Assembly: GCA_965229645.1 (NCBI GenBank)
Contig: OZ245893.1
Coordinates: 448,323 to 512,322, forward strand
Source of the DNA: Alphaproteobacteria bacterium
GTDB lineage: Bacteria; Pseudomonadota; Alphaproteobacteria; UBA7985
DNA: 64,000 bases
Reading direction: 5' to 3'
Positions within the stretch are counted from its first letter, which is position 1. Every line of letters begins with the position of its first letter. Under the pieces are notes generated by a model. That model was not told the origin of the DNA. It was given only the letters and a program-made list of their open reading frames with translations, and made no database searches. The translations under genes were made by a program, and so were the position numbers. This document shows positions 8,999 to 40,133 of this stretch, piece by piece.

Positions 8999-9837
8999 GC
9001 AAACTCACAAAACTGGTTTTGACGGGTGCGGCGGGCGCGCTCGGCACCCAACTACGCGCACCCTTGGCCGCCCTCTGCGACACGCTGGTCTCGACCGACC
9101 AAGTAGAAAGCCTCGGCGACTTGTACGAACGCGAAACCTATGTTCAGGCCGACTTGGGCGATCTGGCCGCCATGCGGGCCGTGTGCGCGGGCGCGCATAT
9201 GGTCGTCCACTTTGGCGCCATCGGCAACGAAGCGCCTTTTGACCAAATCCTCCATTCCAATATCGTCGGCGCCTACAATGTGTGGGAGGCTGCCTACGCC
9301 GCCGGCGCGCGACGGGTGGTCTATGCCAGCTCGATCCACGCGGTGGGCATGTACCCCAAACAGACCCGCATCGGGACCGACGTACCCCATCGCCCCGATA
9401 CCTTCTACGGTCTGGCCAAGTGCTTCGCCGAAGACTTGGGGCGGCTCTATTGGGAAAAGCGCGGCTTAGAGTCGGTGCATCTGCGGATCCTCTCGTGCAG
9501 CGGCCCCGTCACCAACGCCCGCGCCTTGGGGTCCTGGTTGTCCTACGGGGACCTGATCCAGCTCGTGCAACGATCGCTCGAGGCCCCGACGGTCGGCTTT
9601 AGTCTCGTCTACGGGGTGTCCAACAACGACCGCACACCCGTTGACAACAGCGCCGCACAATTCTTGGGCTATCGTCCGCAGGACAACGCCGAGGTCTTTG
9701 CGAAGGAAATTCTGGCCAAAGAGCCCCTCCACGACCCCCAAGACCCTGGCCATATGTGCCAAGGCGGCCCCTTTGCCTCCGCCGCGCTGGGCAGCAGCGG
9801 GATCGTTACGGTCAATCGGGAAACGGAAGAGGCTTAG
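8995..9837 (+). CDS. NAD-dependent epimerase/dehydratase, uronate dehydrogenase-like
   Basis: LVLTGAAGALG Rossmann motif. FGAIGNEAPFDQILHSNIVGAYNVWEAA and YASSIHAVGMYP resemble Udh-family proteins. Confidence 0.7.
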   Translation: MSKLTKLVLTGAAGALGTQLRAPLAALCDTLVSTDQVESLGDLYERETYVQADLGDLAAMRAVCAGAHMVVHFGAIGNEAPFDQILHSNIVGAYNVWEAAYAAGARRVVYASSIHAVGMYPKQTRIGTDVPHRPDTFYGLAKCFAEDLGRLYWEKRGLESVHLRILSCSGPVTNARALGSWLSYGDLIQLVQRSLEAPTVGFSLVYGVSNNDRTPVDNSAAQFLGYRPQDNAEVFAKEILAKEPLHDPQDPGHMCQGGPFASAALGSSGIVTVNRETEEA

Positions 9838-10189
9838 GGCGCGCAAGCCAGCTGCGTTGAATCGCGAGATTGCGGAGTTTTTTCGCGATTTTTTTTGACT
9901 GATTCCGATCGAAACGATCAAAATCAATCACATGATGTGCTGGGTTGTCGGGTAGGGGATCGTCGCGTGTTGCCAGGCCCTGAGAAATGCATTCATCCTT
10001 GCTGACGCCCAAGACGCCTACGGTGCGCATTCCTCTACGAATCGCGGCACGCAAACATCCTTGGGCATCTATCCTGTCTTCCGTATCAACCGAAAGCTGT
10101 CCGTGATCTTTGGGCATGGGACAGAAGTTCTCGCTGCTGACACCTTGATTTTGCGGGTTATATTTTTTCGGATCAATCTGACGAAACAA
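9812..10189 (-). CDS. Hypothetical protein (low-GC islet). The start is uncertain and it overlaps the 3' end of the udh-like gene.
   Basis: A 125-aa ORF in lower-GC DNA with no recognisable motif. Confidence 0.3.
   Translation of the reverse strand: MFRQIDPKKYNPQNQGVSSENFCPMPKDHGQLSVDTEDRIDAQGCLRAAIRRGMRTVGVLGVSKDECISQGLATRDDPLPDNPAHHVIDFDRFDRNQSKKIAKKLRNLAIQRSWLARPKPLPFPD
9860..9897 (+). terminator. Possible rho-independent terminator after the udh-like gene
   Basis: AATCGCGA…TCGCGATT inverted repeat followed by a T run (TTTTTTTTGA). The loop is long at 14 nt, so this is a weak call. Confidence 0.3.
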
Positions 10190-10194
10190 AAGGG

Positions 10195-11388
10195 TTAAGA
10201 TCGTGAGCTCTTTGCCTGACCCATTAACTTGACGACGGCTGCGCTGACGTCACTTGGGCTCCCCGAGGCCACTTCAAAATCGCATTCTGCGTCAGATTCC
10301 AAATCGATACCAAAGGCATCTACACGACCATTTTCTTGAAAAATAAGTGAGAAATCCCACTTTTCATAGACAAACTCAAAGTGAATACCCCCTTCCGCTG
10401 TTGGTGCAACGACATGAAAGTTCGGCAGCGGCCTAGCCTTTGCCAGGTAATTGAGGACCTGTGCGATAAGGTGTTGCGAAATGGGCTGTCCGTGTCCTGC
10501 GTCCCAACCCGTCTTCAAGGTTGCGTAGCTTTTGATCGTGTCCGTGAACTCATGGGGCATGGGTTCTGGGGCTTTGCGCGCGCGATCTTTACCCAACCCA
10601 TGTAAAGGGTCTTGCTCCTGTGGGTAATCCATTCGATCAAATGCGTTGTTGAATGAGAGGACGGCAACATTAGGTTTTGAGTCATGCTCGTTGTGTGATC
10701 TTAAAACAGGGGGCGTCCTATCCCGGACAGCGGCAATAAATTCTGCGATTGCCCAATTTTTGGATCCTATTCGCACATCACTTAAAACAGAATCTCCATC
10801 CTCTGGTCTCTTGTACATTCGCGAGAATATTTCGTGCGACTGTCGCGACCATGTGGCGCATATGGGTTGTTCTTGATCAAGATGAGAGTTGAAGACCGAA
10901 AACTCGAGTGCTTCTTCGTTACTTAAGATTTGGGCAAATCTCTCCAAACCTTGCCTCACTGTCTTCTCGTTCCCAGCGTGTGCAAATTTGATGGGGGCTT
11001 CAAGATGAGTCATGATCTTAATGAGCAAGCGGCACCCATTTTCAACATAGTCCTGCGCAGAAACCTCAAGCCTTGCGGCCTGCGGCCTATTCTCCACCAT
11101 GTTGCATTCCAGCAAGGCCGCGGCTTTTTCCCCTCCATCCGAAGTCCAAGAAAAGTGGAATTCAGGCAGAGCGTTTCTCGCAATTCGAGACCGATTGGGG
11201 CGTTCGGCAAGCCAAGCCTCTTTCGCCAGCGCCAAGACCATATCGCGCAGACGCTTAAGGTTATTGCTAACTTGTATGGGACGATGCCCACCGTTGACGG
11301 GATGCCCATGGTTTGCAGTGGTTATGGTAAGGGTCACAGTCATCGCAGCAACTACTCTCCATTGTATCATCCCAGGACGCACTTTCAA
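10195..11388 (-). CDS. Hypothetical protein (low-GC islet)
   Basis: A 397-aa ORF in a roughly 50% GC segment (9840-11640), wedged between high-GC housekeeping genes. No recognisable motifs. Confidence 0.45.
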   Translation of the reverse strand: MKVRPGMIQWRVVAAMTVTLTITTANHGHPVNGGHRPIQVSNNLKRLRDMVLALAKEAWLAERPNRSRIARNALPEFHFSWTSDGGEKAAALLECNMVENRPQAARLEVSAQDYVENGCRLLIKIMTHLEAPIKFAHAGNEKTVRQGLERFAQILSNEEALEFSVFNSHLDQEQPICATWSRQSHEIFSRMYKRPEDGDSVLSDVRIGSKNWAIAEFIAAVRDRTPPVLRSHNEHDSKPNVAVLSFNNAFDRMDYPQEQDPLHGLGKDRARKAPEPMPHEFTDTIKSYATLKTGWDAGHGQPISQHLIAQVLNYLAKARPLPNFHVVAPTAEGGIHFEFVYEKWDFSLIFQENGRVDAFGIDLESDAECDFEVASGSPSDVSAAVVKLMGQAKSSRS

Positions 11389-11647
11389 GGGCGGTCAGCT
11401 TAAACACATTGGTCGAACCCAACCTGAAGAGGGCGGCAAAGTATCTGCGACTCTTGGACAAGGTCTCGCATGTGGCAGAACCCACGTCGGACCGATTTGA
11501 GGAACATCGGCACCAACCAAAGCCATGCAATCGATTCCACACGGGCACGAATAGCGCGTCGAGCACGCCCACAAGACCGAATCGCCCTTGCGTCCTGGGG
11601 GGAAACAGGGTTTAGGCCCTGTTCATATCTGAACATAAGGAAGTTTC

Positions 11648-13018
11648 ATGACAGACATGTCTTGGTCACCGCAGAGTTGGCGGCAGCGGCCTATTGTGCA
11701 AGTGCCTGCCTACGACGATGCGGCGGGCCTGGCGGCGGCGGAGGCGGAGCTGAAGCGCTTACCGCCGCTGGTGTTTGCGGGCGAGGTGCGCAAGCTCAAA
11801 GCGGCCCTGGCCAAGGCAGCTCAGGGCGAGGCCTTTTTGCTGCAGGGCGGCGACTGCGCCGAGGCCTTTTCAGAGTTCCATGCCGACCATATTCGCGACA
11901 CCTTCAAATCGCTGTTGCAAATGTCCGTGGCGCTGACCTTCGGTGCCCATAAGCCAATTATTAAGGTCGGGCGTATGGCGGGCCAGTTTGCCAAGCCGCG
12001 CTCGGCCCCGACCGAAGTGATCGATGGGGTTGAATACCCGTCCTATCGCGGCGACATCATCAACGATATCAGCGCGACGCAGGCGGCGCGGCGCCCCGAC
12101 CCCCAGCGCATGGTCGCCGCCTATCACCAGGCGACGGCCACCTTGAACTTGTTGCGGGCCTTCGCCCAGGGGGGCTTTGCGGACTTGCGCAAAATTCACC
12201 GCTGGACCCTTGATTCCATGGCGGGCAGCCCCGCGACCGCGCGCTACCGTGACATGGCCGAGCGCATCGAGGAAGCCCTTGAGTTTATGCGCGCCTGCGG
12301 TGTCGATTCCGCCAAGACCGCGGCCTTGCGCGAGACGTCCTTCTACACCTCGCACGAGGCCTTGCTGCTCTGGTACGAGGAGGCCCTGACCCGCACCGAC
12401 TCCCTGACGAACAAGGTTTACGATCTATCGGCCCATATGCTCTGGATCGGCGACCGCACCCGTCAACCCGACCATGCCCATGTCGAGTTTTTGTCGGGGG
12501 TTGAAAACCCCATCGGTGTCAAAATCGGCCCCACGACCGATCCTAAGGACCTGGTTGGCCTGTTGACCAGGCTGAACCCTGAAAATGAACCAGGGCGGAT
12601 CACCTTGATCGTCCGCATGGGCCACGACCACGTTCTGGATCGCATGCCCCCGCTGGTGCAAGGTGTGAAAGACAGCGGGCAAGTCGTCGTCTGGTCGTGC
12701 GATCCCATGCACGGCAATACCCATAAGGCCTCGACGGGGTACAAGACCCGCGCCTTCGACCGCATTTTGACCGAAGTCGAGGGTTTTTTCGCGGTTCATC
12801 GTGATCTGGGCACGGTCCCAGGCGGCATTCATATCGAAATGACGGGCAAGGACGTGACCGAGTGCATCGGCGGCGCCCTAAATGTCACCGATGAGGATTT
12901 ATCGAGCCGCTACCATACGCACTGCGACCCGCGGCTGAACGCCAATCAATCGCTGGAGTTAGCGTTTTTGGTCGCCGAACTCCTGGAAAAAGACCGCAAA
13001 GAAAACGCGCGCAACTAG
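11648..13018 (+). CDS. 3-deoxy-7-phosphoheptulonate (DAHP) synthase, class II
   Basis: 456 aa, with a typical class II AroA(II) N-terminus and length, and an LLQGGDCAE motif. Confidence 0.9.
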
Positions 13019-15677: not shown

Positions 15678-15774
15678 TAAACTTGGTCGCGACAGAGCGC
15701 GCGCAATTCGGCGTTGCGCACTGGACCAGGGGCGCTTCATGCCCTAGTTTACCCTCCGTAAAACTTGGGAGGTT

Positions 15775-16974
15775 ATGAGAACCATGAGACATCTTATTCA
15801 ATCCGCTATGGCGGGCCTGTGCTTGGGCGCGGTCGCGTCGGCGCAGCAAGGCGTTACCGATACGCAAATTCTTCTCGGCTCGCATTCGGCCATGTCTGGG
15901 CCGCTCGCGCCCTGGGGTCAGGCGTCACTGGGCGCAGCGGAGGCGTATTTCGATGCCGTGAACGCCGCTGGCGGCGTCCATGGCCGCGACATAGAGTTGC
16001 AAATTGAGGATCATGCCTACGAGGTGGCAAAGGCCGCCGCAGCGGGCGAGAAACTGGTGATCGACGACGGAGTCTTCGCCATCTTCGCCGCACTCGGCAC
16101 GCCTATGAACAATGCCGTCTTGCCCTTGCAGGAAGAATTTGGCGTTCCCAACGTCTACCCCCTGTCCGCCGCGCGGTCTATGGAGGGCGAGTTGGCCTTC
16201 CAGGGTCTGTCGTCCTACTACGAGCAGATTCAAAAGGGCACGCAATACTTCATTGAGCAGATGGGCGTAACTGCCCCGTGCCTGATCTATTTGGAAACCG
16301 ACTTTGGGCGCGAATCGCTCGACGCCCTGAACGACATCACGGCATCGATGGGCTTGGAGGTGCGGGCGACGGCGGCGCACCAGCCCCGCGATACCGACTA
16401 TGTCGGCTCCTTACTGCGGCTGCAGCGCGAGGGATGCGACTTTATTGCCCTGGGCACCAATTTCCCCGAAGCCATCGCCGCCAAAGCAACGGCAACGCAG
16501 CTCGACTACCAAGTGCCCATGATGGGGTCGACGGCGGTGTTTGAAGACGCGGTCGTTCTGATCGCGCATCAGCAGGGCATTTTGCCCGCGCTTGAGGGCC
16601 TTTACGCGGCGGGTGCGTGGATTTCCGCAACCGATGCCGCGCGTCGATCCCCCGCCGCTGCGGCGTTCAAAAGTGCATGGGAAGAGCGCACGGGTGGCCC
16701 CGTTACGGGCGCAGCCATCATTGGCCGTCTCGGCGCCGAAGTCATGGTCGCAGCCTTGGAAGCCGCAGGGCCTGACCTGACCACCGAGAGCTTCGTGGCA
16801 GCGATGGAGACCATTTCGGTGGACAATATTTTCACCGGCGGCAAAGTCGAGTTCGGCGCAGGGGGGCGCAAAGGATCGTCGGACGTCTTCCTTTCCATGA
16901 TCACCGCCCTCCCGGAGGGCGCGCATCCTGTGTTCAGCCATGCTTGGTTGTTGGTGGAGGAGGAGTCGCTCTAG
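15775..16974 (+). CDS. ABC transporter substrate-binding protein (Leu/Ile/Val-binding LivK-like family)
   Basis: It has a signal peptide (LCLGAVASAQQ) and a periplasmic binding-protein fold typical of branched-chain amino-acid SBPs. Confidence 0.8.
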   Translation: MRTMRHLIQSAMAGLCLGAVASAQQGVTDTQILLGSHSAMSGPLAPWGQASLGAAEAYFDAVNAAGGVHGRDIELQIEDHAYEVAKAAAAGEKLVIDDGVFAIFAALGTPMNNAVLPLQEEFGVPNVYPLSAARSMEGELAFQGLSSYYEQIQKGTQYFIEQMGVTAPCLIYLETDFGRESLDALNDITASMGLEVRATAAHQPRDTDYVGSLLRLQREGCDFIALGTNFPEAIAAKATATQLDYQVPMMGSTAVFEDAVVLIAHQQGILPALEGLYAAGAWISATDAARRSPAAAAFKSAWEERTGGPVTGAAIIGRLGAEVMVAALEAAGPDLTTESFVAAMETISVDNIFTGGKVEFGAGGRKGSSDVFLSMITALPEGAHPVFSHAWLLVEEESL

Positions 16975-17276
16975 TCCCGTTCAGACTTGAAAAGTCTCGC
17001 ATTCAACCGCGTCCAATTCCCCTCCAAAGGAGGGGAATTGGAACATGCGGCCACGGAGTTTGCTGTTGAGATCGTGCGGCATTCGCCGCAACGAGGTGCC
17101 CATGACTCGTTCAGGGTATGGAGAAACCGCAAAAGTGTCATCACCTGCTGCGTCCATCCCTTGGCAGACATTGCGACGAAAGCCACTCGCACTTATCCTG
17201 AAGCGATGGAATGGGCGCCCCCTATAGGTACGAACGTTCAAAACGTTAGTTGGACTTAAAACCCACTGTAGAAAAC

Positions 17277-18530
17277 CTAGAGCTGAGGCGCTTGATGCCC
17301 ACCCTGCTTCTGTCGCTGCACGACGACGAAGAGGACCAGTATGAGGGCAGCGCATACCAGGAAGGGGGCACCGGGCAAGCGGAATGCTTCGGCGTCGGGC
17401 GGCGTCGCCCAGATGAAGGTTCCGACCATGATAAAGGGGGACAGGGTCGAGGCGATGGCGGCCAAGGAGGTGTTGATGCCTTGCAATTCGCCTTGAACGT
17501 CCTTGCCGACCGAATTGGACAGGAGCGACGTGATCATGGGGTTGACCATGACCGAAAGCGCAGAAAAAGGGACCGTCAGGTAGATATGGACGCCGTTTTG
17601 GGCAAAGCCCAACCCCAAAAAGCAGATCAATGCCGCTGCGAGGCCGAGCCTGAGGGTTCGCTCGGGGCCAAAGCGCGTCACCAGCGGCCCGAGCAGGACG
17701 GCCTGAACGAAGGCAAAGGCACCGCCGACCGCGGCCAAAGAGATGCCCACATCCTGTCGATCCCAGCCTGCAACGGCGCGGCCGTAGTAGGACCAGACCG
17801 CAGGATAGACCGTAAAGACCAGGCTGAACAGAAAGGCCGCGAGCAGCCAGCCCTGAATTTCTGGGCGGCGACGAATTTGCCCGAGCGCGCCGAGCGGATT
17901 GGCGCGCGACCACTCGAAGGGGCGACGGTCTTTTTGGTCGAGGGTTTCGGTGAAGAACAAGTAGCCGAAGGCGAAGTTTGCGAAGGCCAAGATGGCGGCG
18001 GCAAAGATGGGCGCGCGCGCATCCAGCCCCGCCAAAACCGCGCCGATGGCCGGGCCCAAAACGAAGCCGATGCCAAAGCCCGCGCCGACGAAACCAAAGT
18101 TGCGCGCCTTACTGGCCGCTGTCGAGATGTCGGCGACGGCCGCGTAGGCGGTGCCGTATGTCGCGCCCGCGATGCCCGCCAAGAGACGCCCGACAAATAG
18201 GACCCATACAGCGCCCGCAAAGCCCAGGATCAAGTAGTCGATGCCAAGGGCGAACAGGGACACCAGCAAGACCCGTCGCCGCCCAAACCGATCGGATAAG
18301 TTGCCGACCGTCGGCCCGAACAGGAACTGCATGCCCATATAGACCGCCATGAGCCACATGCCGACGCCCGCAATCTCGCCAATCGGGTTCGCCTCTTGCG
18401 TTTCTTGCAAGACCTGAGGGTCAAGGCCCCGCAACTCGGCCAGGATATCGGGCAAAACGGGCATGAGCAGGCCGATGCCCATGGCATCGACAATAACGAC
18501 CCCGACGGCGAAGAAGAGTGTTCGGTTCAT
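17277..18530 (-). CDS. MFS transporter (DHA1/Tet-like)
   Basis: 417 aa, with 12 predicted TM helices and a GRRRVLLVSL-type MFS motif. Confidence 0.8.
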   Translation of the reverse strand: MNRTLFFAVGVVIVDAMGIGLLMPVLPDILAELRGLDPQVLQETQEANPIGEIAGVGMWLMAVYMGMQFLFGPTVGNLSDRFGRRRVLLVSLFALGIDYLILGFAGAVWVLFVGRLLAGIAGATYGTAYAAVADISTAASKARNFGFVGAGFGIGFVLGPAIGAVLAGLDARAPIFAAAILAFANFAFGYLFFTETLDQKDRRPFEWSRANPLGALGQIRRRPEIQGWLLAAFLFSLVFTVYPAVWSYYGRAVAGWDRQDVGISLAAVGGAFAFVQAVLLGPLVTRFGPERTLRLGLAAALICFLGLGFAQNGVHIYLTVPFSALSVMVNPMITSLLSNSVGKDVQGELQGINTSLAAIASTLSPFIMVGTFIWATPPDAEAFRLPGAPFLVCAALILVLFVVVQRQKQGGHQAPQL

Positions 18531-29698: not shown

Positions 29699-30799
29699 TC
29701 AAAATCCTTGAATGAGTGTCTTTAAGAACTCGTTGCTCCATCCCGCGCGTTTGAACTTGACGCGATTTGAGGACTTGTCGTTGTTAGCCTTTATGATGTT
29801 CAAAGCAATGCGCCGTAAGGCAGCAAAGTTTGCAGGTGCGTTGCCCTTTCTCGCACGATGGAAGTCCTCGTTCATCACGACATCTAGGGACCAATGTAAA
29901 CTATTTTCAATCTGCCAATGACCACGGATTAGATTGGCAGCCTCCTGAGCGGTGCTCTGCTTTGACATAAGATAAGTCCGCTCTTCTTGGCTAACTTTCC
30001 CATCAACTTCACGCTTATACAACACATGGACGAAAGCAGAAAGGTGGGGCCAATCATGGGTTTGTGTCACATAATCTGGGACCTCATAAACTCTATAGCG
30101 GCGCTCCTCAATACGGCCATGGTCAGCATCCGTGGAACTGTACTCATTCGCCCAAATCGTTTGTGGGTCTGCAATAAAGGTCTGAATATCGTTCATCAAC
30201 CCCTTCTGGTTGGCCTTGAGTTGTATGCAATACTCTGCACCTTGAGCGGCGATCAGTTCACAGGTCTCGCGTTGGCAGTGCAGGGCGTCGGCGGTAAGAG
30301 TGATACCACGAATATCAAGCATCTGGATCAACTCACGCAGCGCTAAAATCTCACTGCCTGCCTTAGCGCTTTGAGTAATACCAAGACTTAACCGCGCCCC
30401 ATGGGCAAACGCTGTGACCAGGTTAAGGTTTGACTTCTTGGCAGCTTTATCAAAGCTCCCACGCAACTCCTTACCATCAATAGCAATGGCCTTTTGCTTT
30501 TCATCAGTGTTTGCAAAATCAGCTTGAAACTTTTCAAAAAACGCCTGAAAACTGTCTGGCTTCATCAACTGAAACAGGCGTGAAAATGCGTCGTGACTGG
30601 GTAAACCCAGAGGAAGTTCCAGAAACTCGCGCAAAAAATCCTCCTTGCTGCGAGCAAAATGTTCCATGTCCACTGCCGTTTCACCCCCACATAGGGCGCA
30701 CAAAAGGCTTATCGTCATCAAGTCGCAGAACTTGTGACGTGGGGCATTGCTCGTGCGAGGATCATCTAACTCGTTGAAATAATTGACTAGTAAGGGCAT
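29699..30799 (-). CDS. ISAs1-family transposase (H-repeat-associated type)
   Basis: The N-terminal FNELDDPR motif and 366-aa length are typical of ISAs1. Confidence 0.8.
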   Translation of the reverse strand: MPLLVNYFNELDDPRTSNAPRHKFCDLMTISLLCALCGGETAVDMEHFARSKEDFLREFLELPLGLPSHDAFSRLFQLMKPDSFQAFFEKFQADFANTDEKQKAIAIDGKELRGSFDKAAKKSNLNLVTAFAHGARLSLGITQSAKAGSEILALRELIQMLDIRGITLTADALHCQRETCELIAAQGAEYCIQLKANQKGLMNDIQTFIADPQTIWANEYSSTDADHGRIEERRYRVYEVPDYVTQTHDWPHLSAFVHVLYKREVDGKVSQEERTYLMSKQSTAQEAANLIRGHWQIENSLHWSLDVVMNEDFHRARKGNAPANFAALRRIALNIIKANNDKSSNRVKFKRAGWSNEFLKTLIQGF

Positions 30800-31107: not shown

Positions 31108-31389
31108 CTAACTGACAGCCTGATGGATGATTGATTTTATCAGCGTTTGGTAGGGCACGCCGTCGCGAAACGCCTGCGCCTTCACACGTGCAAGGTCGCT
31201 ATGGGCGATGCGGATCGAAATTTTCTCGCTTCCTTCATTGAGCCTGTTGCGCGCCGCTTCCTGCATTTGGGCTTTGAGTTCAGGGGTGAGAAGGCTCTCC
31301 CTGGGCACATGGGCGTCGGATTCAAGGGCCTCTACCAACTCTCGCTCCTCCTCATCGAGGGTGTTCTCTACATAGGGGTCTTTTTTCAT
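31108..31389 (-). CDS. brnA: BrnA antitoxin (RHH-type)
   Basis: 93 aa. It overlaps brnT by 4 bp (ATGA) and has a typical BrnA C-terminal ribbon-helix-helix. Confidence 0.75.
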   Translation of the reverse strand: MKKDPYVENTLDEEERELVEALESDAHVPRESLLTPELKAQMQEAARNRLNEGSEKISIRIAHSDLARVKAQAFRDGVPYQTLIKSIIHQAVS

Positions 31390-31679
31390 GAGGCGTCCTT
31401 CTTCAAGTAAAAGGCCGTTTCGTTACGGCTGGGAAATACGGTTTTGAGAAACCAGGTACCGTCATCCTCCATCACGAAAGGAACGACGTAGGCGTAGTTT
31501 TCGATGTTGAGGATAGCGAGGCGCTGATGGGCACTTGTTGGGTGAGGTCGCACGTCAAGGATTCGACCATCAGCAATCGCGACGACGCAGTCGGCAAAAG
31601 TCACGCCATTACGAGAGGTTTCCGCTTGAAGTTTCTTCTCCTTTTCACTGCTCCAGCGGAACTTTTGCATGTCTTCCAT
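31386..31679 (-). CDS. brnT: BrnT toxin (DUF497 ribonuclease)
   Basis: 97 aa, with DUF497-like motifs (WSSEKEKKLQAE and TFADCV). Confidence 0.8.
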   Translation of the reverse strand: MEDMQKFRWSSEKEKKLQAETSRNGVTFADCVVAIADGRILDVRPHPTSAHQRLAILNIENYAYVVPFVMEDDGTWFLKTVFPSRNETAFYLKKDAS

Positions 31680-32213: not shown

Positions 32214-34001
32214 GTGGATTTTGTTCCAGTTACTCCCTATTCGGAATCTATGCACCTGAAGGATCATAGATGGTATGGCTTTTGGACCATGGGCTCAATC
32301 CCGCACGCGCATGATTTGGGTGCGCTAAGGTTCGCCGATCTTTGCAAGCCTGCCGCCGATTGGCCCCATGGCGACGAGGCTGCAGAGGATCCAAGACGCC
32401 AAGAACGACCGAGTTTTAGACAGGTCGCCCCGTGGCTGCCTGGTCAAATGGACAAAACCCTTCTTGCCGATCCCCAGCTCGCGGCCACGCCCCTATTTGG
32501 TACCTTAAAACCTCAATCGGTTGCGGGAGATATGTTGCCAGAAATGAGGGCGATTTTGGGGGGGAACAAGCCAGATACCTGCAAAGTCTATGAACTCAGC
32601 AGCAAGACCATTGCTTTGCTCAACAGGGGCAGAATTTACCGTCCAACTGTGGGGGAAGACGATCGAGTTACCTATGCCTTGGGCTTCAAGCTTTCTAGGG
32701 CCGCTCACTACAGGCTGTTTGGCGACGCCTCTTCGCCCAACCCTTGGCAAGTTTTGAGTAAGAGGAACTGGCAAATCGTCCAAGAACGCCAACGGCTTGA
32801 CGAGGTGCGGGTTCAAAATCACGAAAATTTGCCAAGGCCTTCCACGGTTATTCCTTTGCAAATCCATCGGCTCGTCGTCTGGCACTTTGCTGAGGGCCGC
32901 CTCATTGCCGTCCCCGAGATCGGCATCGCGGACGATGGAGACGAGGGCCACGCATACCCGTTCGACCTTGCGTGGGAATTGGCAGATGGACTGTCGCGCT
33001 TAGGCGAACTTGTGTGGCTTGGGTATGGCGCAGAACAAAGCGGCGTCGCCTATGCTGAGGGCCAAGATCTTGTTCCAATGTGGATTGAGACTGGCGAGCT
33101 AAGTCTCGGCAAAATTCTGTCCCGCCTTTTGCTAGGTGAGTATGCAGTCTATCAACGTGATCGCCGCACATTTGGCTATAGCTATGCCCGTCTTAAAGAT
33201 ACGAATACAAAGGGGCAGCAAAGCGAACTAAGGCTTGCCGCAGTCCGTGCAGCCCTAAGCCTCACATCCGACTACGATGTGGCCGACCCTGTGCCGTTTG
33301 CTGGGATTGCGCAACCGTTTCAAAACATGGTTCATGCCGCTGGGTTGGAAGGGGCCTGTACGCTGGTTGCCGATCACTCGGACGGACGCAACTTGAGCTT
33401 TCTCGACGACTTTCGCACCAATAGGATCGAACAGGAGTATCGTCTTTTGTTGGTTCTGGCAATTTATCAACGTTATGAAGGGCTTCGTTTGTTGCGGAAA
33501 ATCAGTAAGGGGGTTGAGGGGGAAAAGCGTGATATCCACCAGCGCTTGGCCGAGTTGGACGCGCTCTATAACCAGGTTGCAAACTTGCAAGCCCGCTATC
33601 GCGATCATCAACTGAGCGCGGTGGGTACGCAGTTACTGTTCAACCGTCTTGTCCGAACCCAGTTGGGCCTGGACGAGATCGAGGTCCAACTCAACCAAGA
33701 CATGAGGCTGGTCTTTGAGCGGGAACAAGCCGCCGCTGCCGCCGAAAATGCCCGCGAAGACGCGAAAATGATGCGTGCGCAAGGCAAAATGCAAGCCTGG
33801 GCCAAATGGTTCGGCGCTTTGAGCGCAGGCTTTCTTGCCTTTGTTACAACGCTGCAGATTGGGACTTTGACCGATCAACTCCCCTGGTTGCCCAGGGATG
33901 AGTGGCTTATCCTCCTTGCGGTCGGGGTAGCTCTGTTCGCGGCCTTTGCAGCTTATGTAGCGGGACATGGACTCACGAAACGTGCCCCTGACGTTTCTTA
34001 G
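32214..34001 (+). CDS. Hypothetical 595-aa protein with a central coiled-coil region and two C-terminal TM helices. It is the only unassigned cargo gene of the Cas13a island.
   Basis: The ORF has a GTG start at 32214 (an alternative ATG is at 32250). It is lower in GC than the genome. The C-terminus WAKWFGALSAGFLAFVTTLQIG…WLILLAVGVALFAAFAAYVAG forms two TM helices. It ends 70 bp before the terminal repeat of array 1. Confidence 0.6.
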   Translation: MDFVPVTPYSESMHLKDHRWYGFWTMGSIPHAHDLGALRFADLCKPAADWPHGDEAAEDPRRQERPSFRQVAPWLPGQMDKTLLADPQLAATPLFGTLKPQSVAGDMLPEMRAILGGNKPDTCKVYELSSKTIALLNRGRIYRPTVGEDDRVTYALGFKLSRAAHYRLFGDASSPNPWQVLSKRNWQIVQERQRLDEVRVQNHENLPRPSTVIPLQIHRLVVWHFAEGRLIAVPEIGIADDGDEGHAYPFDLAWELADGLSRLGELVWLGYGAEQSGVAYAEGQDLVPMWIETGELSLGKILSRLLLGEYAVYQRDRRTFGYSYARLKDTNTKGQQSELRLAAVRAALSLTSDYDVADPVPFAGIAQPFQNMVHAAGLEGACTLVADHSDGRNLSFLDDFRTNRIEQEYRLLLVLAIYQRYEGLRLLRKISKGVEGEKRDIHQRLAELDALYNQVANLQARYRDHQLSAVGTQLLFNRLVRTQLGLDEIEVQLNQDMRLVFEREQAAAAAENAREDAKMMRAQGKMQAWAKWFGALSAGFLAFVTTLQIGTLTDQLPWLPRDEWLILLAVGVALFAAFAAYVAGHGLTKRAPDVS

Positions 34002-34071: not shown

Positions 34072-35427
34072 GAAGGGGACGGTTTTCAAATCGCCAGGGT
34101 TGGGACCGTCGCCTGGGGTGAATCACTGCTCGAGGAGGGTGCAGGCGGCTTTCAAATAGCCGTGGTTGGGACCGGCTGTTGCTTCCATGACACCGTGGCA
34201 CTGGGTGCAGGCGGCTTTCAAATAGCCGTGGTTGGGACCGTCTGCGGGCACGGGCTCCCAGATCATCGAGGTGCAGGCGGCTTTCAAATAGCCGTGGTTG
34301 GGACCCGCAGACGGTTCGCTGTACGACGTCTACCGGGTGCAGGCGGCTTTCAAATAGCCGTGGTTGGGACCACAAGCACTTTCGATCCGAAATACAAACC
34401 AGGTGCAGGCGGCTTTCAAATAGCCGTGGTTGGGACCTATCCCAACGGGGATTATACGGGCGACTTTGGTGCAGGCGGCTTTCAAATAGCCGTGGTTGGG
34501 ACCGGTGGACCGTGAGGACAAGGGTAAGCAGACGGTGCAGGCGGCTTTCAAATAGCCGTGGTTGGGACCGAAATCCCAGGCGGTGATACAAATTCCGAAG
34601 GTGCAGGCGGCTTTCAAATAGCCGTGGTTGGGACCGCGGATCCTGTACGTTCACGATGTTGCCCCGGTGCAGGCGGCTTTCAAATAGCCGTGGTTGGGAC
34701 CGATCAACGGGCAAAACGTTTTTACGGTTGGGGTGCAGGCGGCTTTCAAATAGCCGTGGTTGGGACTGGCATCTTTCCTTGCTCATCTAGCTTCCTGGGT
34801 GCAGGCGGCTTTCAAATAGCCGTGGTTGGGACCTCAACTTCAAGCAATACTCTGGATTTGCAGGGTGCAGGCGGCTTTCAAATAGCCGTGGTTGGGACCC
34901 GGCTTCTGGTGTAATAGGAATTTTGCTCGGGTGCAGGCGGCTTTCAAATAGCCGTGGTTGGGACCCGATGCTGTAGGCGCCCTTCTGGTCGAGTAGGTGC
35001 AGGCGGCTTTCAAATAGCCGTGGTTGGGACCCCAAGGCTGCGTCGGCGTTCATGCCGAACAGGTGCAGGCGGCTTTCAAATAGCCGTGGTTGGGACCTTG
35101 AACGCGATCCAGATCAAACGCCGATGGGGTGCAGGCGGCTTTCAAATAGCCGTGGTTGGGACCGGGTCGCTCGGTCATGGCCAAGCAGCGCCAGGTGCAG
35201 GCGGCTTTCAAATAGCCGTGGTTGGGACCGCCCGAAGGCTCGCCGAGACGGGCAGGGTTGGTGCAGGCGGCTTTCAAATAGCCGTGGTTGGGACCCATTG
35301 TACCACATGCGGTACACGCCTGGGAGGTGCAGGCGGCTTTCAAATAGCCGTGGTTGGGACCGACTGTGACGGGCGACGTTGCAACCGACTTGGTGCAGGC
35401 GGCTTTCAAATAGCCGTGGTTGGGACC
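34072..35427 (-). CRISPR. CRISPR array 1 with 21 repeats of 36 nt (one degenerate at 34072-34107) and 20 spacers of uniform 30 nt
   Basis: The plus-strand repeat is GGTGCAGGCGGCTTTCAAATAGCCGTGGTTGGGACC, with an exact 66-bp period from 34138 to 35427. Repeat 10 ends in T. The degenerate repeat is at the cas13a-distal end. Confidence 0.95.
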
Positions 35428-35515
35428 AGGATTGTTGCAAGTCATTAAAAATGCTTCGGAATCCTGGGTGAGTCGGATTAGGAATTACCTTGATTGGCAC
35501 TTTGTCAAGACTGGA
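35428..35515 (-). promoter_or_regulatory. Putative leader/promoter of array 1 (AT-richer, between the cas13a stop and the first repeat)
   Basis: Inferred from the array polarity and AT content. Confidence 0.4.
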
Positions 35516-38500
35516 TCAGTCATTTTTTCCTTGTCCATAAGCAAGTTTCTCTAGGGTTTTCAAGAACGTAGTGGAAACGCGGTCCACCTCGAACTTTGCC
35601 TCCGTAAAGGAAGCAAGATGCCAGACGGGAACTGCGCTCAGCCCACCTTCTTGAGGTTTATGGAGGCGGTGCTCATCGCAAGTTTCCCATCTGACTTCAA
35701 TACCTTCATCGAGCATGAGATCCTTGATTGCCTTTGATACGGCGTTGCGCAATTTGCGATCATAGGTCATGAGCCTGCGGACGTCGTTGATAAGGCTGGT
35801 GAGATTGAGCCCCGGCTTCAAGATTGTAAAGTGCGCGAAGGCGTTGCGAATTTTGGCCTGTTCCTCGCCAAAATACTTGTTGTAAAGAGATTGATTGTCT
35901 TGCGTGAGGTTTTCCAACACAAGTGGGCCGCGTTTGAAGCTGGGTCGGTCGCTCAATTTCTTGGCGAATTCATACAGATCCTGGTTTCCATGGCCCTGTT
36001 GACGTTGATAGAGCGCTAAGGCGACGAAAAGCGCATCCCGCTCCCACGTTGCGCTAAAATCGATGAGGCGAGAGACCAGTCGCATGAGCAAAATATGAAG
36101 GCGTGTCATGTCGCTGAGCCGCACCCGTTCCGCTAAGAACTTAAATTTGTTTAGCGCCTCCGTGATCTTTTGATACTCGGCGGTTTCTTCTGCATCCAGG
36201 TGATTTTTCTTCGACTTAACGATTTTATTGTGAAGATCGTGCTTCTTCTTCTCAAAACCCGCAACACGAGGTAAGTCACGCAAGTAGCTGGACACCTCAG
36301 CTTCGGAAATTTTGCTGGTCGCGTGCAGGTTTTGTAGGAGGGGCAAGGTGCCAAAGCGCAAAATTTGTCGTAAGCCAGTTTTGAGACCTTCAACGCGTCG
36401 TTCCTCTGCGGCCTTCGCACCAACGGACAAATCTTGCTGCGGGGCAAAGACCCGCTGGAAATGGCCCCGATCTTCAAAAAGGTCCGCCACGTCGGCCAAA
36501 CCGCCCGACGTTTCAAGGATGTTGACCATGTGCGCGCCAGCCATTTTTCCGTAGAGCAGACAAAGATCGCGCAGTTTGCGAGCGTAGTCGCTGTGCTCAT
36601 CGGGACGCGTCTCTTTGGTTTCCAGAACGCGGGCCTTGACGAACTGAGTCATGAGTCGGCTGGTATCCTGCACTGGCACCAAGTAGAGAAACACGTAAAA
36701 CAAGGCCTCCCAATCTTCGAGATCTCGATCTAGACCAGCGTCTTCAAAGGCGGGGGGATGCGCGACATATGTTCGTTTCTCCAGTCGGCCGCGCGCGAGC
36801 CATTGGAAGGGTTTGCCTTGCGGCGACTCTAGGAATTGGGCGAAGAGCAGGGCGAAGAAATCACATTTCAAGTCCTCGATCGCGTGAGAGTTCTTTCGTG
36901 CTTTCTTTCTGTCGGCCACGTAGGTTCGATTCTGCCGCGTTTCGGCGGCGACAACTTGGGTCAGTTGATCGAACCATTCTTGGAGATTCTTGCCAGGATG
37001 CAGTTGCGGGACTTGGGTCAAGCGCGACTCAACTAGGTCCGCGAAGGGCCCCGTGTTGTTCATGGCCTTGGCACGCGCGGTCGCCTCTCTAATTACTTGG
37101 TCGGCCGCATCGGCGAACTTTGACGTGCCGTTGTTTTCTATCAGCCAAACCCGAAAGGCAGAATTGTAGATCAGTTGCAAAGCACCGAAATGACAGGTCG
37201 CCGCTTCGTCATTTTTTGTTACCGTACTTATCTTATCGGGGAACTGCGATCGGGTGTCGTCTTTTGGGAAATGGCCTTTAAGGTTGTGATTGCGATGCAG
37301 GATCCGCCCAAATCGAGGGATCAGCAAATCGCGATCGGGCTCGAGCAGTGAGGCCTTGAACAGGTCCTCAACCTCTCTATGGCCAGGAACAAACCACGGC
37401 ACCTTTAGGGCCATGATCACATCCTTAGATCGCTGCTTCAGGCCCCGCATGTCGGTTTCTAGCCGTGCGCGCGCGAAGGCGAGCAAGTCAGAAAAGCCCT
37501 CGACGTCGTTCCAATTCCCCGCAACTTCAAGTTTGTGAAGGCTGGCCTTGAGCTTCGCGGCGTCGCCAAAATGAAAGACTTGAGTGCGCAATCGCGCCGC
37601 CACCCTCAGTAGTGCGAACAACCGTTGCTTTGCCAGTTGCTCATCTTCGGTCGCAAAGACCGAGTCATCCCCGTGGGAGTCACCGCCAGCCTCGTTCAAA
37701 GGATCGCCAAAGACAAGTTTGGCCATGCGGTTATAGTGCGGCAAACCCACGAAACACTTCGTGGTCGCCTTTATTCCGACCTCATTCGAAAGAATGTCGT
37801 CGTCCACATAAGCCGTTTCAGGGCCGAAAATTTCACCTTTTGGATCGGCCCAGTATTTTAAGGTGCGGCTAGCTTGCGAAATGGCGGTGCGCCAGAATCG
37901 TTCGAAGGCTTCGGAGTGCTTAAGCGCCGTGAGCGCAGACGACGTTTTTAGGGCCTGCATGCAGGCGGGCATCTGCTCTGCCGAGTGCGCGCGTCGGGCC
38001 GCGTGGTAGATATTACGGCCTTCGCGGATCAAGGCGGTCATGGTGGCGTTGCCTTGCTTGCGGTTTAGGGCACGCACCAGCGACGCCATGTCGGCGGGCA
38101 AGCGATAGGAAAGCGGTGTGCGCGTGTTTTGGAGGTGCCGAGTGGACTTGCGTACCTTGTTGGCGTAGAATTTTTTGACCTGGTTGTGCAGGTCAAGCAA
38201 GTCGCGATCGGACGAAGTGAACTTTTGGCCTGGCTTTTTTAAGGGCGCAAAGTGGTCCGATAAGATCTTCCCAAAAAGTGTCGTGCCAACAGGCTCGTTC
38301 TGACTTTCGCGCCTGCGCACCTCTGAAAAAATATGGGCGGCTACGTTGGCGTACGTCCCTTGCTGATAGGCCTTAAGGCGCGGCTCGGACAGCTCCAAGC
38401 TCGGGCGCTCTGTGTTTTGGGCCGCGGTCCAAAGGTTGGAGGTCCTAATGCTATTGGCCCGGTGCCAAATCAATCCGTGACCAGATTTTTTTTGACCCGA

Positions 38501-39016
38501 GGCCGAGACTTTCGCGGTGAACAGGTGGGCGTCGATGTTTTGGGCAATCTGCTTGTAGTTGGGGTTTCCTTGCGCGTCTTGCGCCCAGAGGGCTGTCTTG
38601 AGGCGTCCATAAATTCGATCAGGCTGAGCGCCCGCAGGGGCCCTGTCCCTTAAGGCCCTCAAGTCCTCCTCGGCCGTTGGAAAGTCCGCGTAGGGATGCA
38701 GCTTCGCCCGCCAAAATTCGAACTTGGCGCCGACGTTCTTACGGCTGATAAGTTCCCACACGGCCTGGCCCAACTGCTCGCGCCGTTCGTAGCGCTCAAC
38801 AGACATGAGGCGCAGGTTCTTTTCTTTGGTGAGGACCTTGTCCAGAATTCCGATATATTGCCGCATCAGAATTTTGGCCTCTTTCGATATGAGGGTATGG
38901 AGGTCAGCGTCTCGGTTCTGCTCAGACACAGTGGGCCGCGTTACCTCGACGCGACGCTCCAATTTTGAACCGTCCCAATGCGTTTTACTGTTGCCGATTG
39001 ATGAGATGATTTTCAT
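35516..39016 (-). CDS. cas13a: Cas13a (C2c2), the type VI-A CRISPR RNA-guided RNase
   Basis: 1166 aa, flanked on both sides by CRISPR arrays. It has two R-x4-H HEPN motifs, RTQVFH at aa 476-481 and RNAFAH at aa 1057-1062, a placement that matches Cas13a. It is lower in GC than the flanking DNA. Confidence 0.85.
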   Translation of the reverse strand: MKIISSIGNSKTHWDGSKLERRVEVTRPTVSEQNRDADLHTLISKEAKILMRQYIGILDKVLTKEKNLRLMSVERYERREQLGQAVWELISRKNVGAKFEFWRAKLHPYADFPTAEEDLRALRDRAPAGAQPDRIYGRLKTALWAQDAQGNPNYKQIAQNIDAHLFTAKVSASGQKKSGHGLIWHRANSIRTSNLWTAAQNTERPSLELSEPRLKAYQQGTYANVAAHIFSEVRRRESQNEPVGTTLFGKILSDHFAPLKKPGQKFTSSDRDLLDLHNQVKKFYANKVRKSTRHLQNTRTPLSYRLPADMASLVRALNRKQGNATMTALIREGRNIYHAARRAHSAEQMPACMQALKTSSALTALKHSEAFERFWRTAISQASRTLKYWADPKGEIFGPETAYVDDDILSNEVGIKATTKCFVGLPHYNRMAKLVFGDPLNEAGGDSHGDDSVFATEDEQLAKQRLFALLRVAARLRTQVFHFGDAAKLKASLHKLEVAGNWNDVEGFSDLLAFARARLETDMRGLKQRSKDVIMALKVPWFVPGHREVEDLFKASLLEPDRDLLIPRFGRILHRNHNLKGHFPKDDTRSQFPDKISTVTKNDEAATCHFGALQLIYNSAFRVWLIENNGTSKFADAADQVIREATARAKAMNNTGPFADLVESRLTQVPQLHPGKNLQEWFDQLTQVVAAETRQNRTYVADRKKARKNSHAIEDLKCDFFALLFAQFLESPQGKPFQWLARGRLEKRTYVAHPPAFEDAGLDRDLEDWEALFYVFLYLVPVQDTSRLMTQFVKARVLETKETRPDEHSDYARKLRDLCLLYGKMAGAHMVNILETSGGLADVADLFEDRGHFQRVFAPQQDLSVGAKAAEERRVEGLKTGLRQILRFGTLPLLQNLHATSKISEAEVSSYLRDLPRVAGFEKKKHDLHNKIVKSKKNHLDAEETAEYQKITEALNKFKFLAERVRLSDMTRLHILLMRLVSRLIDFSATWERDALFVALALYQRQQGHGNQDLYEFAKKLSDRPSFKRGPLVLENLTQDNQSLYNKYFGEEQAKIRNAFAHFTILKPGLNLTSLINDVRRLMTYDRKLRNAVSKAIKDLMLDEGIEVRWETCDEHRLHKPQEGGLSAVPVWHLASFTEAKFEVDRVSTTFLKTLEKLAYGQGKND

Positions 39017-39166
39017 GCCGAACCTCAGCCAAAGTACCTAAGTGCCAATTCACGGACGTTGCCTCGTGAACCTCAGGTCTTTGGGGTTAGAGAACCGCTG
39101 TTACAAAAACAAGGGCTTCGATAGAGTCTCAACGCACGAGTACGAGGGCCGTCGCAACGGGCTGCT

Positions 39167-39894
39167 GGGTGTTACTGTAGCCGATGTTTGAACCGAGGTC
39201 GTCCTCGAGTCATCCCAAAGTTGGGGGTGTTGGCGGCTGTCACTGTAGCCGATGTTTTAACCCACGGACAGCTGAAAGAAGGAGGTACCTATCAAGGGTT
39301 TTGGCGGCTGTCACTGTAGCCGATGTTTTAACCCACGGACAGCTGAAAGAAGGAGGTACCTATCAAGGGTTTTGGCGGCTGTCACTGTAGCCGATGTTTT
39401 AACCCAGACCCCGAAAACGTCAATGTAGTTGAAGTCGGTGTTGGCGGCTGTCACTGTAGCCGATGTTTTAACCTCCTACAAAATTCCGGGGGGGAGTCTA
39501 ACTCTCACGGTGTTGGCGGCTGTCACTGTAGCCGATGTTTTAACCCAGTTCGATGGACTGGTGGGCGGATCCGCCAGGGTGTTGGCGGCTGTCACTGTAG
39601 CCGATGTTTTAACCGAAGGTTTTGTAGCCAGCTTTACCCCGTATAGTGGGTGTTGGCGGCTGTCACTGTAGCCGATGTTTTAACCGACGAGGAATACATC
39701 CTCGTCATGACACCCTGGTGTTGGCGGCTGTCACTGTAGCCGATGTTTTAACCAAAATAAGAAGGCTGACGTAAAAGTCAGACTTCGGTGTTGGCGGCTG
39801 TCACTGTAGCCGATGTTTTAACCTGGGCTACGGCTTGTTTGTGCCGCACAACGACGCGGTGTTGGCGGCTGTCACTGTAGCCGATGTTTTAACC
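39167..39894 (-). CRISPR. CRISPR array 2 with 11 repeats of 37 nt (one truncated terminal repeat and two G-to-T variants) and 10 spacers of 31-35 nt
   Basis: The plus-strand repeat is GGTGTTGGCGGCTGTCACTGTAGCCGATGTTTTAACC. Repeats 2 and 3 read GGTTTTGG…. Spacers 1 and 2 are identical. The truncated repeat (39167-39194) lies next to cas13a. Confidence 0.95.
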
Positions 39895-40133
39895 TCACGT
39901 CTTCTAGCCCCGCTCTGGGCTTGAAGAAAGTACTTTTTTTCTGAACCAAACCCGAAACGGTGACCCAAACGCCATCTCATACGAAGAGAAAGTGGCTGTA
40001 GGACGTGGCAAAATCCTTGTCCAGCTTAGCCTTTGCAGAAAATCTGAACCAAAATCGTCGATTTCCCACGCCAACAGGGTCAATATGTCCAGTATTCTGG
40101 GGTCAGGGATACGAGAACGCAGAGCCGCCATTT
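39895..40133 (-). promoter_or_regulatory. Putative leader of array 2
   Basis: It lies at the non-degenerate end of the array and contains an A/T run (GTACTTTTTTTCTG). Confidence 0.4.

Follow-up and report, generated by a model that had tools for sequence, protein, structure and literature searches.

How does a single CRISPR effector gene come to lie between two arrays that differ in both repeat and spacer length, and can the one effector use both? The question is raised by a locus in a 64,000-nucleotide (nt) stretch of alphaproteobacterial DNA, hereafter called the window (lineage UBA7985; assembly GCA_965229645.1, contig OZ245893.1, positions 448,323 to 512,322). The locus is best described as a stand-alone type VI-A locus that reads, on the minus strand, leader 2, array 2, cas13a, leader 1, and array 1. 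Our best reading, to which we assign a probability of roughly 55%, is that one stand-alone Cas13a locus receives spacers through two array-specific adaptation inputs acting in trans. It is already known that type VI-A loci can lack cas1 and cas2, that adaptation can occur in trans, that one cas13a can have two arrays, and that distinct repeats can occur in one locus. What is new is the occurrence of two stable, active, and different length regimes flanking one stand-alone cas13a, observed with more than 170 spacers and across sister genomes.

The cas13a gene (35516-39016, minus strand) encodes a protein of 1166 amino acids that matches the NCBIfam model NF038188 over residues 1-1158 with 491 bits (cutoff 150) and is recognized by PADLOC with an E value of 2.8e-135. 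Both HEPN R-x4-H motifs are intact, RTQVFH at residues 477-482 (HEPN1) and RNAFAH at residues 1057-1062 (HEPN2), and in an alignment of 18 homologues R477, H482, R1057, N1058, and H1062 are invariant. Array 1 (34072-35427, minus strand) contains 20 repeats of 36 nt (GGTCCCAACCACGGCTATTTGAAAGCCGCCTGCACC in the sense of the CRISPR RNA [crRNA]) and a degenerate terminal repeat at 34072-34107. The 20 full copies, GGTGCAGGCGGCTTTCAAATAGCCGTGGTTGGGACC on the plus strand, span 34138-35427 with a period that is always 66 nt, so that all 20 spacers measure 30 nt. Array 2 (39158-39894, minus strand) contains ten 37-nt repeats (GGTTAAAACATCGGCTACAGTGACAGCCGCCAACACC in crRNA sense) and a degenerate terminal copy at 39158-39194; the ten full copies, GGTGTTGGCGGCTGTCACTGTAGCCGATGTTTTAACC, lie at 39226-39894 with periods of 68-72 nt, giving spacers of 34, 33, 31, 34, 32, 35, 32, 34, 34, and 31 nt, nine of the 10 being unique. 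These repeat periods and the NF038188 match bear out the original prediction, made from the sequence without database searches, in its coordinates and in its description of 36-nt repeats with 20 spacers of 30 nt, 37-nt repeats with spacers of 31-35 nt, and a lone cas13a. Leader 1 (35428-35515, minus strand) is the 88 nt from the cas13a stop codon to the first repeat of array 1, and leader 2 (39895-40133, minus strand) is the 239 nt from the stop codon of a glycerate-kinase gene to the first repeat of array 2. Array 2 is an extra upstream array with its own leader. Tandem Repeats Finder detected no other arrays in the window.

The difference in spacer length is evident in the window by itself (Mann-Whitney p 2.6e-7). 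When the unique spacers of four strains are compared, 152 from array 1 and 25 from array 2, it gives a Mann-Whitney p of 4e-22 and, for spread, a Levene p of 3e-18. In array 1, 137 of the 152 unique spacers (90%) are 30 nt long and the rest are 28-31 nt, with a standard deviation of 0.34; departures from 30 nt occur only in long-read metagenome assemblies, and in the finished window the count is 20/20. The 25 array-2 spacers range over 29-36 nt (mean 32.6, standard deviation 1.5), and up to 37 nt when a fifth, more distant locus (L213) is included. Spacers common to strains do not differ in length between them, which argues against assembly noise as the source of the variation, and the length regimes are a stable property of each array in every genome. 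The G+C content of the spacers, 0.53-0.54 in both arrays, lies below that of the window (0.60), a difference that would be expected of foreign DNA. Read in crRNA sense, array-1 spacers begin with G in just 17/152 unique cases, and other positions have no comparable bias. No self-targets of the 177 unique spacers were found in the window and all loci, four leader-end spacers had no match in IMG/VR, and both repeat cores had no match in IMG/VR and plasmids. A search of metagenome contigs with the degenerate repeat pattern GGTGNNGGCGGCTN{7,8}AGCCGNNNNNNNNACC proved too loose, returning at least 120 single chance matches and no arrays among the matches listed.

That both arrays are active follows from comparison with sister strains. 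Three metagenomic contigs in the 90%-identity cluster of this Cas13a (loci L006, L007, and L008) encode Cas13a proteins 96-97% identical to that of the window, in flanks that are 91-99% identical, and all carry both arrays in the same places with the same leaders and repeats. Leader 1 is near-identical in the four strains, leader 2 is conserved in L006-L008 and L213, and the stretch that separates the array-2 trailer from the start codon of cas13a (39017-39157, minus strand) is likewise conserved between strains, with an insertion element close by in L007. Array 1 holds 20 spacers in the window, 16 in L006, 55 in L007, and 79 in L008; the window and L008 share the trailer spacer only, L006 and L007 share the last three only, and the cas13a-proximal spacers are unique. 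Array 2 holds 10, 7, 7, and 10 spacers in the same order of strains. All four have its trailer spacer, CCCAACTTTGGGATGACTCGAGGACGACCTC; pairs of strains have a few internal spacers in common, with their order kept, and each strain has leader-end spacers of its own. Strain-specific leader-end spacers together with shared trailer spacers indicate ongoing acquisition in situ: both arrays are being extended at their leader ends. The fifth locus, L213, is about 87% identical in its flanks, and it keeps leader 2 and array 2, whose repeats are exact and whose seven spacers, all unique, measure 31-37 nt. An insertion sequence (IS) of the IS3 family (11045-12840) lies there inside the eighth array-2 repeat, and cas13a, array 1, and the 3' part of a neighboring orphan gene are deleted. 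The suggestion that one array might be a relic of a lost second type VI system, if an inert relic is meant, is not supported, since in five genomes the repeats of array 2 are exact and its leader-end spacers are specific to the strain.

Several local rearrangements were seen in these arrays. A repeat-spacer unit of array 2 is tandemly duplicated in the window at 39226-39404 (spacer CTTGATAGGTACCTCCTTCTTTCAGCTGTCCGTG), with the repeat variant …CCAAAACC, and is single-copy in L007. In L007, an IS256-family element (Transposase_mut; 8310-9983) splits cas13a around codon 80-86, and a 1.9-kb insertion (15679-17602) interrupts array 1, which still holds 55 spacers. In L008, array 1 has a repeated 11-spacer block and a third partial copy (15749-17268), which is either a real duplication or a long-read assembly artefact.

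The direction in which the arrays are read bears on which parts of the repeats are compared. When an alignment of Cas13a was used to scan the species genomes of GTDB, 80 loci were obtained; a scan of genome contigs with a single Cas13a protein as the query found no relative. In the closest relatives, P0002 (39% identity; loci L001-L004) and Pararhizobium sp. IMCC3301 (L005), cas13a has the array just downstream of it and on its own strand. The repeats read GGTAAGACTACGGCTATTTCGACAGCCGACTGCACC and …CCACTGCCAAAATGAAGGCAGACTGCACC, those of L002 and L005 ending in GACTGCACC. About 50 further relatives have the same layout, with repeats ending in GACT(G/A)CACC. Covariance models built solely from the relatives' repeats, 24 with a 7-nt loop and 7 with an 8-nt loop, match the arrays of the window on the minus strand only, and in the 24 relatives the 5-base-pair (bp) stem covaries, with 100% of cells paired and compensatory double changes in 4/5 pairs. 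Array 1 matches both type VI-A repeat models (18.9 and 31.6 bits). Array 2 matches the 8-nt-loop model (21.1 bits, E 3e-5) and has no match to the canonical 7-nt-loop model. In minus-strand sense the degenerate repeats form the 3' end of each array. Type VI-A crRNAs have a repeat-guide layout, in which an intact last repeat would give an extraneous crRNA (PMC13187072), and degenerate 3'-end repeats fit that layout and hence the minus-strand sense. Taken together, the layout in relatives, the covariance models, the polarity of the spacers, and the position of the degenerate repeats show that the minus strand, which carries cas13a, is also the one on which the two arrays are read. The plus-strand reading of the repeats in the original prediction was wrong on these grounds and was rejected. 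When array-2 repeats are read on the plus strand (39234-39893), each is scored as a hairpin resembling an intrinsic terminator, with a T-rich tail after it, by which antisense transcription through the array would be disfavoured.

Read in crRNA sense, the array-1 repeat is GGUCCCAACCA-CGGCU-AUUUGAA-AGCCG-CCUGCACC and the array-2 repeat is GGUUAAAACAU-CGGCU-ACAGUGAC-AGCCG-CCAACACC. Each folds into a 5-bp stem with a loop of 7 nt (array 1) or 8 nt (array 2) and an 8-nt 3' flank. Rfam matched no family in the region. The stem is identical (CGGCU/AGCCG), the 3' handle agrees at 6/8 positions, and the 5' flank agrees at 6/11, for about 70% identity overall; both repeats share GGT at the leader-facing end. 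It had been claimed that the repeats differ in 11 nt at the cas13a-proximal end. The flanks do differ, but 6 of the 11 positions are identical, and in the minus-strand sense the region is the leader-facing 5' flank and not the handle adjacent to the spacer. Other Cas13a enzymes cut upstream of the stem, removing much of the repeat 5' flank. The two repeats differ mainly in the loop and in this flank, much of which would be expected to be lost in processing. Each array is probably transcribed from its own leader, and the single Cas13a would be expected to process both precursor crRNAs, as the two share the same 5-bp stem and have near-identical 8-nt 3' handles (CCUGCACC and CCAACACC). With a single effector, a shared stem and handle, two maintained arrays, and matches of both to a type VI-A model on the cas13a strand, it is plausible that Cas13a uses both crRNA families.

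A comparison of leader 1 with leader 2 found no similarity. The repeat-proximal end of leader 1, GACTTGCAACAATCCT, is similar to the leaders of related downstream arrays, for example those of L010 and L019, and its junction reads …CAACAATCCT followed by GGTCCC. Leader 2 carries the motif TTTGGTTCAGAAAAAAA (39934-39950), situated 39 nt upstream of the first array-2 repeat, and its junction reads …GAAGACGTGA followed by GGTTAA. With the leader of L002 it shares the motif TTTGGTTCA(G/A)AAAAAAA, at distances to the first repeat of 39 and 41 nt, respectively. This common motif indicates that array 2 is native to this lineage, as opposed to a foreign array of type I or type III.

An array is detectable at about 60 related cas13a loci, and most have a single downstream array with 36-nt repeats and 30-nt spacers. 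Where the locus is stand-alone, a single downstream array is nearly always seen, its repeats being 36 nt with a 7-nt loop and its spacers 30±1 nt, whatever the host phylum. In position, repeat architecture, and ruler, array 1 is canonical for this Cas13a clade. A minority of loci have longer or variable spacers, mainly those linked to a fusion of reverse transcriptase and Cas1 (RT-Cas1). RT-Cas1-Cas2 is encoded beside cas13a at L040, L060, L209, and L211, and such loci mostly have 37-nt repeats, usually with 8-nt loops, and spacers of 29-41 nt. L040 is the published VI-A/RT1 system of Rhodovulum kholense DSM 19783, with 37-nt repeats in two flanking arrays; L209 (Rhizobium sp. FKY42) has 37-nt repeats and two arrays with distinct repeats; L060 has 37-nt repeats; and L211 has 36-37-nt repeats, a loop of 7 nt, and spacers that are mostly 30 nt long but extend to 36 nt. 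The comparison with arrays next to cas13a homologues that the original prediction had proposed was run and, with the repeats now in minus-strand sense, it associates the 36-nt, 7-nt-loop form with stand-alone loci and the 37-nt, 8-nt-loop form mostly with RT-Cas1-linked ones. Variable spacers without a local adaptation module occur at L032 and L077.

Some of these relatives have features of their own. The arrays of L040 (9177-9575 and 14219-14456) have stems with compensatory changes, CCGCU/AGCGG versus CGGUC/GACCG, and spacers of 29-38 nt beside RT-Cas1 and of 30, 30, and 30 nt downstream of cas13a, so that the locus parallels the window on a small scale. L032 (Thiothrix fructosivorans) has 37-nt repeats and 32-35-nt spacers, with a TnpB/Cas12f-like open reading frame (ORF) (OrfB_IS605 and TNB domain; 8749-9849) directly upstream of cas13a. 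In the single cas13a-linked array of L077 (13806-15394), with spacer periods of 65-74 nt, the 5' 11 nt of the repeat switch from ATTGAAGATAA in the older half to AAACGAGATAA in the newer half, and the history of this array may include a change of leader-proximal repeat or of adaptation partner. In a Stappia genome (L210, 10001-21591), an RT-Cas1 sharing 47% identity with those linked to cas13a lies in a type III locus with Cas10 and RAMP proteins, which indicates that one RT-Cas1 family serves both type III and type VI-A systems.

How long a spacer is depends on the Cas1-Cas2 integrase and on prespacer trimming, and the array does not set it. The window has no candidate for either regime: PADLOC and Pfam found no adaptation genes among its 54 ORFs (no RVT_1, Cas_Cas1, or Cas2), Cas13a being the sole CRISPR protein, so that the locus has none within 25-35 kb and the window holds no type II-C locus (cas9, cas1, and cas2). 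Searches with tblastn using the RT-Cas1 and Cas2 proteins of L040 and L060 found nothing in the window or in L006-L008. All-against-all clustering of the flanking ORFs of about 85 cas13a loci gave no conserved cas1 family; the recurring neighbours there were restriction-modification systems and housekeeping genes only, with RT-Cas1-Cas2 at L040 and L060 only. In Listeria, the spacers of the type II-C and VI-A arrays both average 30 bp (bioRxiv 10.1101/2024.10.25.620265). As one integrase there gives equal lengths, and as length is an integrase property with no adaptation genes in the window, two distinct modules acting in trans are the most likely source of the two regimes. Each module would recognize its own leader-repeat junction. 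That serving array 1 might be a type II-C-like Cas1-Cas2, and that serving array 2 one with a looser ruler, for example RT-Cas1-Cas2 or a type I or type III Cas1-Cas2; both assignments are speculative. A more specific version is tentative, at somewhat less than even odds: two independent array-specific channels, one strict, II-C-like, and supplying 30-nt DNA-derived spacers to the downstream array, the other loose-ruled, possibly based on RT-Cas1 and so perhaps RNA-derived, supplying the upstream array, with the leaders and repeat 5' flanks as address labels. Of the explanations first offered for the arrays, loading by different adaptation machineries is accordingly the best supported, by way of polarity, separate length regimes, and the lack of adaptation genes in the window, although the machineries themselves were not found there.

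Several points weigh against two array-specific inputs to one Cas13a. The case for two machineries draws on the rule that the integrase sets spacer length, no module having been found in the 64 kb, and the use of both arrays by Cas13a is read from repeat anatomy alone. Within the otherwise similar 3' handles, positions 3-4 differ between the arrays (UG versus AA). Array 2 is like RT1 arrays in architecture, yet its sequence is no more RT1-like than that of array 1, which the 8-nt-loop model scores higher (31.6 versus 21.1 bits). RT-Cas1-linked arrays can hold mostly 30-31-nt spacers, as at L210 and L211. None of the best 120 of 1607 homologues of the L060 RT-Cas1 came from this organism, a weak negative. 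Finally, a search for protospacers of the 177 unique spacers in 50,697 phage genomes returned one chance match only.

A single module in trans could instead serve both arrays, the lengths arising from features intrinsic to each, such as a 37- versus a 36-nt repeat or leaders that alter second-site integration or trimming. Neither a second module nor indeed any module was seen in the window, the promiscuity of the type II-C integrase towards different arrays is known (bioRxiv 10.1101/2024.10.25.620265), and the two repeats are 70% identical with a common GGT at the leader-facing end. We nevertheless consider this unlikely, because the Listeria precedent is of one integrase giving equal lengths on two arrays, because the array-2 repeat is constant at 37 nt, so that the variation lies in the spacer and is fixed before integration, and because the leaders have no similarity.

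An equally improbable account is that array 2 belongs to another system, a second VI-A or RT-Cas1 locus that is elsewhere or was recently lost, and was placed here by an accident of recombination, Cas13a using array 1 only. Array 1 does have the canonical position and regime of the clade, and array 2, which fails to match the canonical 7-nt-loop model, has the architecture of VI-A/RT1 (37 nt, 8-nt loop; PMC6753606) and persists without cas13a in L213. The loss in L213, however, came about recently, through an IS3-mediated deletion with a breakpoint in a repeat, and in the four other strains array 2 lies directly upstream of cas13a on the same strand. Its stem and handle are conserved with array 1, leader 2 is homologous to the leader of L002, the closest Cas13a relative, and no second effector was found within the 64-kb window. 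A recombinational origin of array 2 from another VI-A lineage is possible. That neither array acquires spacers, and that strains differ by horizontal exchange or recombination of ready-made array segments, is very improbable. In its favour, adaptation genes are absent nearby, IS elements flank and invade the locus, and L008 array 1 has large internal duplications, but polarity is strict in both arrays, with a unique leader end and a shared trailer, genomes with Cas13a proteins as close as 96-97% identity contain more than 150 different spacers, and spacer G+C content is below that of the window, as for foreign DNA.

The surroundings of the locus consist of a glycerate-kinase/ABC-transporter operon on one side and an orphan gene on the other, with IS elements around. 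The orphan ORF (32214-34001, plus strand), beside the array-1 trailer, encodes 595 amino acids (583 in another gene call), with a coiled-coil region and, after it, two transmembrane helices at the C terminus. The ORF is kept in all sister strains, is not found at other cas13a loci, and has homologues at the species level only. As a candidate accessory or adaptation factor it was set aside, having no match in Pfam, NCBIfam, PADLOC, or the PDB and being absent from other cas13a loci. Two small overlapping ORFs (31108-31679, minus strand) encode a CopG/BrnA-like antitoxin of 93 amino acids and an unassigned 97-amino-acid partner; they are conserved in L006 and L008 and are probably a toxin-antitoxin pair. 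An ISAs1-family transposase (29699-30799, minus strand; NF033564, 330 bits) is a recent insertion, judging from a segment of about 1.2 kb that is missing from the syntenic L006-L008. At other stand-alone cas13a loci, type I restriction-modification operons (HsdR, HsdM, and HsdS) lie within 10 kb of cas13a in unrelated phyla (L009, L015, L021, L028, L045, and L064). Cas13-induced dormancy and restriction-modification systems are reported to cooperate, and these recurrent neighbours fit.

How type VI systems without cas1 and cas2 are supplied with spacers is only recently being answered, by crosstalk with type II-C systems in Listeria and Flavobacterium and by RT-Cas1 variants. The present locus is a natural test of the features by which a given integrase addresses an array (the leader and the repeat 5' flank). 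It tests as well whether one Cas13a accepts two handles and whether one effector can pool DNA- and RNA-derived memories, and its two natural repeat variants mark positions in the Cas13a handle that may tolerate change.

Among known systems, Hohaiivirga grylli (L037) is like the window in having one cas13a flanked by two same-strand arrays. It differs in that its leaders are duplicated, its repeats differ at two 5'-flank positions, and both arrays have 28-29-nt spacers; these arrays are a simple duplication under a single regime. The type VI-B array of Flavobacterium columnare is loaded by a type II-C module (PMC8092290), so that here too a co-resident system supplies spacers to a type VI locus that targets RNA and lacks adaptation genes; it differs in having Cas13b, a guide-repeat crRNA layout, one type VI array, and one donor machinery.

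The VI-A/RT1 systems resemble array 2 in architecture, though by sequence the 8-nt-loop model scores array 1 higher. Their arrays have 37-nt repeats with an 8-nt loop and a 5-bp stem, and spacers of 30-49 nt (PMC6753606), and an RT-linked VI-A system acquires mostly 34-35-bp spacers (PMC11662929). Like the window, these systems have arrays around cas13a (one or two); in L040 and L209 the repeats of the two arrays are distinct but related, with compensatory changes in their stems. Array 2 shares with the VI-A/RT1 systems the 37-nt repeat, 5-bp stem, 8-nt loop, and variable spacers. However, VI-A/RT1 loci encode RT-Cas1 and Cas2 by cas13a, and none is present in the 64-kb window; their Cas13a proteins are just 26-27% identical to that of the window; and the RT1-like architecture is confined to array 2, array 1 being strictly 30 nt.

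Array 1 finds its counterpart in Listeria seeligeri, in which the VI-A array has a 36-bp repeat and lacks cas1-2, and a type II-C Cas1-2 loads it in trans at the cas13-proximal end with spacers of 30 bp, some of 29 bp (bioRxiv 10.1101/2024.10.25.620265). Array 1 and about 50 related loci match this model, with no cas1 or cas2, 36-nt repeats and 30-nt spacers, and cas13-proximal insertion in a downstream array. Within the locus only array 1 has the pattern of II-C trans-adaptation, that is, a 36-bp repeat, 30-nt spacers, and unique spacers that are cas13a-proximal. The window departs from the Listeria model in its second, upstream array, which has its own leader, a 37-nt repeat, and spacers of 29-37 nt that the II-C ruler leaves unexplained.

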